Assembly (NCBI GenBank): GCA_947305835.1
Contig: CAMZEQ010000001.1
Location: 1 to 30,569, forward strand
Direction: 5' to 3'
Length of the DNA: 30,569 nucleotides
From: an uncultured Alphaproteobacteria bacterium
GTDB lineage: Bacteria; Pseudomonadota; Alphaproteobacteria; CAAHEQ01; UBA3637
The translations under genes and the position numbers were made by a program. Below the pieces are notes generated by a model that saw only the letters and a program-made list of their open reading frames with translations, made no database searches and was not told where the DNA came from. Shown here one piece after another: positions 19,210 through 20,950 of this stretch (its first letter is position 1; every line of letters begins with the position of its first letter).

Positions 19210-20025
19210 ATGCTTTATTTGGTGGCTACACCGATTGGAAATTTGGGGGATTTTTCTTTGCGGGCGCGTGAGGTATTGGAGCGGGTTGATATGATCGCTT
19301 GCGAAGATACACGTACCAGTCGTCAATTATTTTCATTGCTGGGATTACACGTTAAAAAGATGATTGCCTATCACGATTTTAATGAAGAAAAAGCGGTACC
19401 TACATTGATTAAAAAATTGCAATCCGGGACAGATATTGCTTTGGTGTCGGATGCAGGTATGCCGCTGATTTCTGATCCGGGATATAAGTTGGTGCATGCA
19501 TGTCGGCAGAACGGTATCGAAGTGACCAGTGTGCCGGGGGCAAATGCTGTTTTAACGGCTCTGCAATTGTCAGGTTTACCCACAAATGCTTTTTATTTCG
19601 GTGGTTTTTTACCACCCAAAAAAGCCCAACGGGAAAAGTCTTTACAAACTGTTGCGCATTTGCCGGCTACTTTGATTTTTTATGAAACGGCGAACCGATT
19701 GCGGGATGTTTTGGAAAGTTTGTATCATATATTGGGTGATCGTTCTGTGGCTGTAGTGCGTGAAATTACTAAAAAATTTGAACAGACTCAGGTCGGTACT
19801 GTTTCGGAATTGTTAACCTTATATGGCCAGAACGGGACGCCAAAAGGTGAAATTGTTTTGGTCATTCACGGGGATGTTGATAAACAAACAAAAACAGCAA
19901 AGGTATCGATTGCCGATTTGCGTTCGTTTTTGTCTGTTAAAGATACCGCTCAGGTTCTTTCTGTTATTCATGGAATCAGTAAAAAGGAAGCCTATGCGCA
20001 AGTTTTGGCAAATGACAAATTATAA
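19210..20025 (+). CDS. rsmI: 16S rRNA C1402 2'-O-methyltransferase
   Basis: LYLVATPIGNLGD, ACEDTR, ALVSDAGMPLISDPGY, FYETANR, REITKKFE; AGGAG RBS before ATG 19210. Confidence 0.97.
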   Translation: MLYLVATPIGNLGDFSLRAREVLERVDMIACEDTRTSRQLFSLLGLHVKKMIAYHDFNEEKAVPTLIKKLQSGTDIALVSDAGMPLISDPGYKLVHACRQNGIEVTSVPGANAVLTALQLSGLPTNAFYFGGFLPPKKAQREKSLQTVAHLPATLIFYETANRLRDVLESLYHILGDRSVAVVREITKKFEQTQVGTVSELLTLYGQNGTPKGEIVLVIHGDVDKQTKTAKVSIADLRSFLSVKDTAQVLSVIHGISKKEAYAQVLANDKL

Positions 20026-20950
20026 AGCCGGACATTTGGCTGAAAAGTATGCTTTGTTTTGGTTGCGGCTAAAAGGGTATCATTTGGTGGCGCGAAATTT
20101 TGTGGTGGGACGCGGCACGGGGGCCGGCGAAGTGGATTTAATTGTGCGACGGGGTAAAACGTTAGTTTTTGTTGAAGTAAAAAAAAGGCCGGATGAGGTG
20201 ACGGCTTTGAATGCGATTCGTCCCAAAAATCAAAAACGTATTGAACGAACCAGCCGCATTTTTTTATCACGTTTTTCCAAATATCAAAATTATCAGGTGC
20301 GCTATGATATTATGATGATGACATCTTGGATTCCCAAACACTTACCCGATGCTTGGCGTCCGTTAAGTTTGATTTTTGGGTTGTTTTTTTTGGTCGGATG
20401 TCAAATGTGGGGTACAATGATCGGCAGCGTGCATTCATTGGTCGGTGTGATATCGGATGATCGGCCTTTAAGCGAAGATGCCTCGGATATTGCCCTTTAT
20501 ACGCGTGTTCGTGAAAGATTGGCCCAACGAGATATCAAGTCTGTTTTGGATGTTCAATTGACGGTTTTTCAAGGTGCTGTTTTATTAACCGGAGCCTTAC
20601 CGAACTATGATGAAATAGCCGAAACAGTGGAAAAAGTTTGGCAAACCAGGGGGGTTCAATATGTCTATAACTATATTCGAATGGGGCAGGCTTTGGATCC
20701 GGTTCAAAGCAGTGAAGAAATTGCGTTGTCCAGCTCCATCCGTACCAAATTGGCCCTGACCGAAGGGATTAAATCAGCTAATTATAAGCTGGTTTTGGAA
20801 AACGGTACCGTGTATGTGATGGGACTTAAAAAAGATATGGATGAATGGCAAAAGGCACGCGCTGTCATTGCAAATACCTATGGGGTGGATAAAATTATTT
20901 GTTTGATGCGTGATCAGGAAAAAGATACACATAATATAAATGAAAATTAA
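20012..20950 (+). CDS. YraN(UPF0102)-BON-domain (DolP/YraP-like) fusion protein, 312 aa
   Basis: Residues 1-117 are YraN (GHLAE, GEVDLIVRRGKTLVFVEVKKR, VRYD, PKHLPDAWRP); then an internal hydrophobic segment with lipobox LVGC (Cys130); then two BON-like repeats (GAVLLTG, NGTVYVMG); no stop in between. Confidence 0.85.
   Translation: MTNYKAGHLAEKYALFWLRLKGYHLVARNFVVGRGTGAGEVDLIVRRGKTLVFVEVKKRPDEVTALNAIRPKNQKRIERTSRIFLSRFSKYQNYQVRYDIMMMTSWIPKHLPDAWRPLSLIFGLFFLVGCQMWGTMIGSVHSLVGVISDDRPLSEDASDIALYTRVRERLAQRDIKSVLDVQLTVFQGAVLLTGALPNYDEIAETVEKVWQTRGVQYVYNYIRMGQALDPVQSSEEIALSSSIRTKLALTEGIKSANYKLVLENGTVYVMGLKKDMDEWQKARAVIANTYGVDKIICLMRDQEKDTHNINEN

Follow-up and report, generated by a model that had tools for sequence, protein, structure and literature searches.

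In-frame fusion of the YraN nuclease to a DolP-like BON lipoprotein across an internal lipobox, a candidate polyprotein of uncultured gut Alphaproteobacteria

In E. coli, the genes for YraN and for the dual-BON lipoprotein DolP (YraP) lie close together in the order lpoA-yraN-diaA-dolP. YraN is an ssDNA endonuclease that acts on the transformation D-loop together with the helicase ComM, and L. pneumophila and A. baylyi both require its catalytic Glu residues (Hardy et al., bioRxiv 10.1101/2024.02.06.579203). The same study describes YraN without any other structural domain and reports two kinds of C-terminal addition to it, a FLAG fusion that is functional and T18/T25 fusions that bind ComM. 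A first-pass annotation of the DNA analysed here took the function of YraN to be unknown, a view which this work makes outdated. DolP of E. coli (PDB 7A2D) consists of a lipobox Cys, a flexible linker and two BON domains; its residue W127 is required for PG/CL binding and septal localisation, and DolP that is mistargeted to the inner membrane fails to reach the septum (PMC7806268). Further dual-BON proteins available for comparison are A. baumannii BonA (6V4V) and N. gonorrhoeae DolP (6XMV).

Here we analyse a window of 30,569 nucleotides from an uncultured alphaproteobacterium, in which a YraN domain and a DolP-like protein are joined in a single open reading frame (Table 1). As in E. coli, the BON gene sits just downstream of yraN, in the window with no intervening diaA. 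The arrangement lpoA / rsmI-yraN-BON is a conserved neighbourhood, with rsmI and yraN adjacent in all 23 of the 23 loci compared, and the fused frame overlaps the 3' end of rsmI by 32 nt (rsmI stop at 20023-20025). The first-pass annotation had begun the frame at the ATG at 20012. We find that this codon is unique to the window, relatives having ACG, TTG, CTG or CCG at that position, and place the true start at ATG 19994: this codon and the Shine-Dalgarno motif AAAAAGGAAG are kept in 11/11 fused loci in our locus comparison, and the resulting N-terminus, MRKFWQ-MTNYK..., resembles those of homologues, which start MRKFW or MKKFW.

Table 1. Features of the fused locus and its surroundings, in window coordinates.
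Feature	Position	Strand	Basis or remark
LpoA/LppC-like lipoprotein gene, divergent from rsmI	17771..19129	-	Pfam Peripla_BP_6 53.3 bits, LppC 26.3 bits
rsmI, 16S rRNA methyltransferase, upstream neighbour	19141..20025	+	Pfam TP_methylase 115.9 bits
Shine-Dalgarno-like motif	19981..19990	+	3 nt between its end and ATG 19994
Fused ORF	19994..20950	+	318 aa from conserved ATG; TAA at 20948-20950
YraN / UPF0102 PD-(D/E)xK nuclease domain	20012..20362	+	complete to usual C-terminus ..AWRP
Catalytic motif GAGE40-V-D42 (beta2) ... E55-V-K57 (beta3), numbered from 20012 Met	20129..20182	+	sequence motif
YraN tail IPKHLPDAWRP, putative positively charged n-region of signal	20327..20362	+	charge pattern, 46 proteins
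Putative internal lipoprotein signal: h-region LSLIFGLFF, lipobox L-V-G-C (20390-20401), Gln at +2	20363..20401	+	sequence, 46 homologues
DolP-like mature lipoprotein (predicted): CQxW.T....HS linker, BON1 20495-20683, BON2 20726-20905	20402..20947	+	Pfam, PDB, NCBIfam, Foldseek

The central observation of that annotation, a single in-frame YraN-BON fusion, holds. YraN reaches its usual end with no stop, the last codon of HLPDAWRP (CCG, 20360-20362) being followed by TTA (20363-20365), LSLIFGLFFLVGC and the Cys codon at 20399-20401, and the frame stays open through the lipobox to the terminal TAA. It runs on for 195 codons past ..AWRP, and YraN is not a single-domain protein here. The nearby out-of-frame ATG at 20349 does dead-end as described, at a TAA at 20364-20366. 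A scan of 19000-21200 gave one terminator-like match, at 20348-20360 inside the frame, which is within chance expectation.

Could the joint be an error? The window comes from a MAG that is 63% complete and split into 130 contigs, and a T8 homopolymer at about 20383-20390 falls in the h-region, so that one might suspect a sequencing error at this run, or a recently broken stop of no selective meaning in a decaying pseudogene. We compared contigs of four sequencing runs, all of them DNA. Over 19986-20403 the window is matched exactly by a Logan contig from run X1, and a contig from a different study (X2) covers 20302-20493 with substitutions only; contigs of two studies thus cross the joint with no indels. 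The accompanying suggestion, a search of relatives for YraN+BON proteins, finds the same open frame in 11 other species-level genomes of the genus, although in G012 the contig stops within it, and also in some 45 metagenome proteins, with identity down to 54%. Values of dN/dS are 0.02-0.19 in each half and up to 0.55 at the junction; dS is saturated, often above 1. These ratios indicate that purifying selection acts on both halves. The gene fusion is genuine and old, and the artefact or pseudogene reading, to which we give a vanishingly small probability, is already refuted.

The YraN half is a complete domain. It scores 60.6 bits on Pfam UPF0102 (PF02021; cut-off 23.6) over aa 10-101, and phmmer matches it to PDB 3FOV (E 5e-14) as far as chain residue 128 of 134. 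In the predicted structure the domain has pLDDT >90 and superimposes on 3FOV with a TM of 0.87 (Foldseek, normalised to target) and an rmsd of 2.1 A. The C-termini of unfused relatives read AWR(V)L-stop or AWRP-stop. The GxGExD and ExK motifs are kept in 45/46 fused proteins, while the NCBIfam equivalog NF009151 is not reached (110.8 bits vs 124). Like known YraN proteins such as 3FOV (RPA0323), then, the window protein has the full domain, the E-x-D...E-x-K residues and the conserved rsmI-yraN neighbourhood; unlike them, it has no stop at that end and continues into a lipoprotein signal and 190 more residues. Among the 21 genomes of the genus, ComM co-occurs in 21, DprA in 19 and ComEC in 18.

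For the second half, Pfam finds BON twice (60.5 bits vs a cut-off of 27), in keeping with the two BON domains previously noted after the lipobox. The match to E. coli DolP (7A2D, E 8.7e-17) spans both domains, and Foldseek returns 7A2D, 6V4V and 6XMV. The score on NCBIfam NF008247 is 75.9 bits over profile positions 9-186 of 192, short of the equivalog cut-off of 184, but because an unfused orthologue, P0052, scores only 75.2 bits, we attribute this to lineage divergence and not to the fusion. The protein also differs from E. coli DolP in its signal, which is internal and not N-terminal, and in having Ala238 at the place of W127 (chain residue 108 of 7A2D), with no aromatic residue nearby. The proposed division-site phospholipid-binding module loses its footing here, the counterpart of W127 being Ala. 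The sole hint of an outer-membrane, periplasm-facing location is the Gln, not Asp, at +2 of the lipobox.

To see how two such genes could come to be joined, it is instructive to look at yraN/BON boundaries in sister genera, where we find TAA-ATG in the same frame (G021), an ATGA overlap (G022) and TAAcATG (G023). In a tree of RsmI and YraN, all fused loci form one clade with support of 100/100. This topology indicates that the fusion arose once. The yraN stop and the BON-gene start were both lost, and the abutting stop and start codons of the ancestral neighbours explain the fusion. Its carriers form one branch of a genus of uncultured gut Alphaproteobacteria with small genomes. An unrelated high-GC alphaproteobacterium (P0074) has fused the same pair independently, in the same gene order lpoA / rsmI-yraN-BON and with a Cys-ending lipobox kept at the joint; its protein exceeds the NF009151 cut-off (133.3 bits vs 124). 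Fused architectures were taken from the best 150 matches of the representative search, so that weakly similar independent fusions may be missed. Three class-level relatives that appeared as fusions (G040, G038 and G034, with open frames of 446, 389 and 393 aa) were rejected, their DNA having stops after YraN.

The two halves have also had separate fates in some lineages. G010 is nested inside the fused clade, yet its protein ends at ..AWHPF followed by a stop, and BON is found nowhere in this genome. Conversely, the P0011 lineage (8 contigs, several samples) has lost 18 and 23 codons of YraN and with them the catalytic ExD; both deletions are in frame, and the frame from the yraN ATG into BON is retained. 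Either half, BON in G010 or the YraN core in P0011, can therefore be lost independently. YraN is also found fused to its other neighbour, RsmI. The idea that the fusion is a Rosetta-stone clue to YraN function is weakened by these observations, because either half is lost alone, abutting codons suffice to explain the fusion, and YraN is fused to RsmI as well.

What lies between the two domains? The lipobox Cys of a lipoprotein normally falls within about the first 40 residues of the precursor. We compared the segment with the usual form of a lipoprotein signal, a lipobox [LVI][ASTVI][GAS]C preceded by a positive n-region and an h-region of 7-22 aa, and find all three elements: the lipobox pattern, a short h-region and a positive n-region with K, H and R in ..PKHLPDAWRP. 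What differs is the placement, the Cys being residue 136 from ATG 19994. Across 46 fused proteins, the Cys is present in 46/46, position -1 is G/A/S in 46/46, position -3 is L/I/V/M/F in 46/46 (Leu in 39/46) and +2 is Gln in 44/46; the unfused orthologues P0050-P0055 likewise have Gln at +2. The W-to-C spacing of 11-15 aa is the same as in the signal peptides of unfused orthologues, and the h-region, at 9-13 aa, has not lengthened into a 20-residue anchor after fusion. With an unvarying lipobox set in a variable h-region, the signal appears to have kept its function. The mean net charge in the 46 proteins is +3.2 over the 14 aa before the h-region vs -4.3 over the 30 aa after the Cys, a bias that agrees with the positive-inside rule for an N-in/C-out orientation. 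The window's genome encodes LspA (contig C68), Lgt (C13) and an M50/RseP protease (C73), and among the 21 genomes of the genus LspA is found in 15 and Lgt in 18.

We judge it somewhat better than an even bet (roughly 0.55) that the fusion is a small polyprotein resolved by Lgt/LspA into two proteins. Translation from ATG 19994 would give the 318-aa precursor, whose nuclease domain would fold in the cytoplasm. The old signal peptide, residues about 118-130 counted from the 20012 Met, with the YraN tail KHLPDAWRP as its n-region, would then insert N-in/C-out; we infer that the invariant Cys is lipidated by Lgt, after which LspA would cut before it. This cut would free a normal dual-BON lipoprotein for the periplasm or the outer membrane, with the new acylated N-terminus CQMWGTMIGSVHSLVGVISDDR. 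YraN would retain a hydrophobic tail of 12-13 residues, which may associate weakly with the membrane or be trimmed by an RseP/SppA-type protease, and the freed enzyme would act with ComM on transformation D-loops. A further elaboration strikes us as a long shot: a folded enzyme of 120 residues would act as the cytoplasmic n-region of a working signal, LspA would serve as a polyprotein-processing protease, and the tail would tether the cut YraN near ComEC until an RseP-type protease frees it, which would give spatial or temporal control of transformation recombination.

The main competitor is a protein that is never cut. Here the segment would be a type II signal-anchor holding YraN at the cytoplasmic face of the inner membrane and BON in the periplasm; such a bitopic fusion would have a function of its own, for example to keep the D-loop nuclease close to where DNA enters through ComEC, or to couple envelope state to DNA processing. 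The AlphaFold2 model has two confident domains with a low-confidence helix between them (pTM 0.55), which suggests no fixed inter-domain packing, and it draws residues 117-147 as one continuous helix that could equally be compatible with a signal-anchor. The stretch after the Cys, QMWGTMIGSVHSLVGVI, is moderately hydrophobic, the positive-inside bias suits N-in/C-out insertion, the fusion has persisted through long divergence, and ComEC, DprA and ComM are all retained. But an anchor would not call for an L-[SG]-G-C lipobox that never varies, nor for the Gln at +2. The h-region before the Cys is short and did not lengthen, the segment after it is equally present in unfused orthologues and hence is no new anchor, either half is lost alone, and a DolP held at the inner membrane is, in E. 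coli, not septal. We regard an uncleaved protein as rather unlikely.

Of the two readings put forward by the first-pass annotation, the Lgt/LspA polyprotein is thus the better supported, by the lipobox in 46/46 proteins, the length of the h-region, the charges and the presence of Lgt and LspA, and the bitopic protein the less so. The position of the Cys, far beyond the normal N-terminal window, is a point against the polyprotein. Conservation of the Cys and its neighbours could also have a different cause, such as their place in the conserved CQxW.T...HS segment. Our literature search on internal lipobox and signal fusions turned up no report of LspA cutting a protein downstream of a folded cytoplasmic domain.

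A different possibility is that ribosomes also start inside the frame, at the Met-Met-Met codons at 20312-20320, and make a normal lipoprotein with a 30-residue signal peptide, the fusion being a minor or tolerated by-product. The three in-frame ATGs are shared with the closest relatives of the window (L003-L005), a signal starting there would carry K, H and R in its n-region, and the ancestral genes were translationally coupled. Yet the remainder of the fused clade lacks these codons and reads ..RYDAVFISPKHFPKHL.. there; two loci, L009 and L010, are without any in-frame ATG, GTG or TTG from the RYD strand to the h-region, and in 35/46 fused proteins no Met lies in the stretch from the last YraN strand to the h-region. 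We looked for a Shine-Dalgarno-like motif 4-12 nt before in-frame ATG, GTG or TTG codons near the joint and found none in the 11 fused loci, so the earlier claim that a separate Shine-Dalgarno-led start is absent stands. A scan of 19000-21200, which is a weak test, likewise gave no sigma-70-like promoter on the plus strand inside yraN. Finally, both YraN deletions of the P0011 lineage are in frame, as expected if BON needs the yraN start.

On these comparative grounds we reject the Met codons as a conserved start. Dominant initiation there, named by the first-pass annotation as an outcome that would overturn its fusion, is unlikely since the codons are limited to the window's subgroup; internal initiation within that subgroup is formally possible. 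As an account of the locus we find internal initiation quite improbable. With no Shine-Dalgarno-led internal starts, no Met in 35/46 proteins and the frame kept in P0011, BON appears to be translated only as part of the fusion. On the polyprotein reading, which we hold to be the best explanation, a single ORF would yield two proteins; the fusion would be nearly neutral, a product of genome compaction, and would not make a new enzyme with two sides.

How unusual would such a protein be? One parallel is the fbcH cytochrome b-c1 polyprotein of Bradyrhizobium japonicum, reportedly shown by Thony-Meyer et al. in 1991 to be cut at an internal signal peptide into two proteins. As at our locus, adjacent alphaproteobacterial genes are fused there and the export signal of the second protein lies mid-chain; unlike our locus, fbcH is cut by type I signal peptidase and joins two membrane subunits that belong to the same complex, whereas the window has a type II signal, unrelated halves and a cleavage that is predicted. 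Enterococcal and staphylococcal pheromone peptides are made from lipoprotein signal peptides by LspA and the RseP-family protease Eep. In these, as proposed here, the part upstream of the lipobox Cys is a product, and the window's genome has an RseP-type M50 protease; the pheromones are 7-8 residues long, whereas the signal side of the window protein would be a folded enzyme of 120 residues.

Processing of the internal lipobox, if it occurs, would mean that Lgt and LspA can act on a signal behind a folded cytoplasmic domain. This would widen the rules of lipoprotein prediction, as current predictors consider the N-terminus only and would miss this DolP-like lipoprotein entirely, and would provide a bacterial example in which signal peptidase II resolves a polyprotein. 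The locus comes with natural controls: sister genera without the fusion, a lineage that deleted BON and one whose YraN is gutted. Little is gained for the biology of YraN itself, its ComM-linked role being already published, beyond the observation that YraN, ComM, DprA and ComEC are all retained in gut alphaproteobacterial genomes of ~1 Mb. The wider lesson is one of caution with Rosetta-stone inference in compact genomes: coupled, abutting neighbours can fuse and remain so without a common function, since an export signal within the chain can part them once more.

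We find that both halves of the fused reading frame belong to recognizable families. A UPF0102/YraN domain (residues 10-101, 60.6 bits in Pfam) is followed in the same ORF by two BON stretches (60.5 bits), and the usual YraN C-terminus, which in unfused relatives ends as ..NAWR(V)L-stop or ..AWRP-stop, is reached before the frame continues through a TTA codon with no stop. The alignment with 3FOV, a solved YraN-family structure, reaches residue 128 of 134. The BON half is homologous to DolP/YraP (PDB 7A2D, E 8.7e-17) and covers positions 9-186 of the 192 in NCBIfam NF008247, with a score under that family's cut-off. 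In the AF2 model (mean pLDDT 88.9, pTM 0.55) the YraN domain and both BON domains are confident, whereas residues 117-147 form a helix of low confidence; Foldseek matches of the model are DolP, BonA, OsmY and 3FOV. The first-pass annotation had the fusion right but placed its start at 20012, an ATG found in the window alone, whereas the true start, ATG 19994 (MRKFWQ-MTNYK..), is kept with its Shine-Dalgarno AAAAAGGAAG in all 11 fused loci. Both this conserved start and its Shine-Dalgarno fall within the coding sequence of rsmI, and the two genes share 32 nt (19994-20025). About 85 nt 3' of the fused ORF is a perfect C8...G8 inverted repeat, CCCCCCCC-TGTTTTCTA-GGGGGGGG (21033-21060), which may be a bidirectional terminator; a terminator scan did not include it among its calls.

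Features of the fused locus and of joints in compared loci and genomes
Feature	Position or sequence	Strand	Basis or remark
lpoA/lppC-like gene	17771-19129	minus	Pfam; part of conserved alphaproteobacterial block
rsmI	19141-20025	plus	upstream of yraN in conserved alphaproteobacterial block
Fused yraN-BON frame	open through to TAA 20948-20950	plus	sequence reading
Joint	LSLIFGLFF-LVGC, Cys 20399-20401, then linker, BON1, BON2	plus	sequence reading
BON1	20495-20683	plus	Pfam BON search
BON2	20726-20905	plus	Pfam BON search
Convergent ORF, 110 aa	21066-21398	minus	opposite side of C8...G8 repeat from fused gene
P0074 locus	L034:4001-4996		order lppC / rsmI-yraN::BON-gshB, same context as window
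Joint in genome G021	..AWRVL-TAA-ATG-LNFRFLFL..LTGC		both genes in same frame
Joint in genome G022	ATGA		overlap of yraN and BON gene
Joint in genome G023	TAAcATG		between yraN and BON gene

The fused frame is genuine, as first proposed: contigs from two studies cover the joint, the frame is open in relatives, and purifying selection acts on each half. A contig from run X1 is identical to the window over 19986-20403, and one from X2 (another study, gut metagenome), covering 20302-20493, differs by substitutions alone, one of them a synonymous change at 20374. The open fused frame recurs at 54-81% identity in eleven more species-level genomes of the genus. Both Pfam domains are also joined in about 45 metagenome proteins, 296-315 aa long. 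In pairwise comparisons dN/dS lies at 0.02-0.19 for the YraN half as well as for the BON half, and dS is often above 1; the fusion is therefore old, with selection acting on both halves. The shared open frame, these ratios and the absence of indels from the contigs exclude an artefact or pseudogene. The host, an uncultured alphaproteobacterium whose genome is about 1 Mb in size, is kin to MAG UBA3768 and comes from gut metagenomes. Databases list this architecture under generic names, and NCBI labels some of the fused metagenome proteins 'YraN family protein'; literature searches found no discussion of it.

At the joint, every sequence property of a lipoprotein signal is present except its position. 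Among the 46 fused proteins the Cys never varies and position -1 is always G, A or S, while Leu occupies -3 in 39 and Gln occupies +2 in 44. Between the conserved positions the h-region varies freely (junction dN/dS up to 0.55), and it spans 9-13 residues, as in the signal peptides of unfused orthologues such as MKKVVPLLFLILCGC, without lengthening to a 20-residue anchor. The 14 residues ahead of the h-region, contributed by the YraN tail, carry a net charge of +3.2, and the 30 that follow the Cys one of -4.3. The window's own genome encodes LspA, Lgt and an RseP-type M50 protease, and genes for all three occur across the genus. The most economical reading of these sequences is that the precursor would insert N-in/C-out at the joint, that Lgt would lipidate the Cys of the internal lipobox, and that LspA would then cleave, so that a mature BON lipoprotein of the usual kind is formed and YraN is left with a short hydrophobic tail. 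An uncleaved bitopic protein, to which the single long helix spanning the joint in the AF2 model would correspond, seems unlikely. The predicted mature start, C-Q-x-W/I-G/T-T-x-x-x-G-x-H-S/R (20402-20440), is strongly conserved in fused and unfused orthologues; the matching region of E. coli DolP is a flexible linker.

How, then, is the BON half translated? The fused clade has no conserved internal start. From the last YraN strand to the h-region, 35 of the 46 proteins are without a Met, and 19 have none before the Cys. In two fused loci (L009 and L010) that interval lacks any in-frame ATG, GTG or TTG. Moreover, in P0011, a close relative of 273 aa found on 8 contigs from several samples (L035:3001-3822, L036:2766-3587), the YraN domain is shortened by two in-frame deletions, one of 18 codons covering the catalytic ExD and one of 23 codons covering the last strands. 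From the yraN ATG the ORF nevertheless stays open, through an undamaged lipobox, into a BON half 83% identical to the window's. That the deletions preserve the frame argues that BON expression depends on the yraN start and that the fusion protein is the primary product. Internal initiation is formally possible in the window's subgroup, which has Met-Met-Met codons at 20312-20320, but we consider it quite improbable given these in-frame deletions, the restriction of the codons to that subgroup, and the lack of an SD-like motif ahead of any candidate internal start in the fused loci.

In other genera of the family (G021, G022 and G023) yraN and the BON gene are separate yet abutting, and in class-level relatives they are adjacent with short gaps. 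Loss of a few codons, including the yraN stop and the BON start, would give the fused ..AWRP-F(h-region)-L-S/G-G-C. A tree of RsmI+YraN divides the genus into two clades, one of 7 YraN-only genomes and the other holding all 11 fused loci together with genome G010 (support 100/100). In a Pfam search of 21 genomes, the 12 fused genomes were precisely those with BON domains, solely inside the fused ORF; the 9 YraN-only genomes, two of them 98-99% complete, had none. The genus therefore has only two states, fused or BON lost. Because of this absence from 9 of 21 genomes, the DolP-like BON lipoprotein was lost at least twice. G010 has no BON domain anywhere in its genome by Pfam, and its YraN (locus L017, G010:C6:5500-8500, 1560-1937, minus), whose end overlaps that of a convergent 416-aa gene, finishes ..AWHPF-TAG. 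The retained Pro-Phe signature of the joint identifies G010 as a case of secondary deletion of the BON half.

P0074, a 331-aa YraN::BON protein from a high-GC alphaproteobacterium metagenome contig (32% identity), has the joint ..RHLPNAW-GLCLALVLALGATTGC and an atypical lipobox, T-T-G-C. None of the matches listed is a fused relative of it; it is a second fusion, independent of that in the genus.

The function of YraN, taken as unknown in the first-pass annotation, has been published: it is an ssDNA endonuclease that co-evolves with, binds and acts with the ComM helicase in transformation D-loop resolution, and it tolerates C-terminal additions: FLAG-tagged YraN is functional, and ComM binding survives fusion to T18/T25 (Hardy et al., bioRxiv 10.1101/2024.02.06.579203). 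Of the 46 fused proteins, 45 have intact catalytic motifs, and the genus retains ComM (21/21 genomes), DprA (19/21) and ComEC (18/21). YraN and these three are kept even in the ~1-Mb genomes that lost the BON lipoprotein.

This publication also weakens the proposal that the fusion is a Rosetta-stone clue to YraN. The abutting stop and start provide a mechanical cause; either half has been lost without the other (BON in G010, the YraN catalytic core in P0011); and metagenome proteins P0221, P0216 and P0223 join RsmI domains (TP_methylase or RsmI_C) to UPF0102, YraN overlapping the 3' end of rsmI. These observations argue against shared function and for fusion by proximity, tolerated because the internal signal parts the two products. 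Nor is a division-site phospholipid-binding module supported: W127 of E. coli DolP, which PG/CL binding and localisation to the septum require (PMC7806268), corresponds in the alignment to Ala238, and no aromatic residue is close to it. The fusion opens no new view on YraN function; it offers a clean testable case, with natural controls, for the question whether an internal lipobox that follows a folded domain can be processed by Lgt/LspA.
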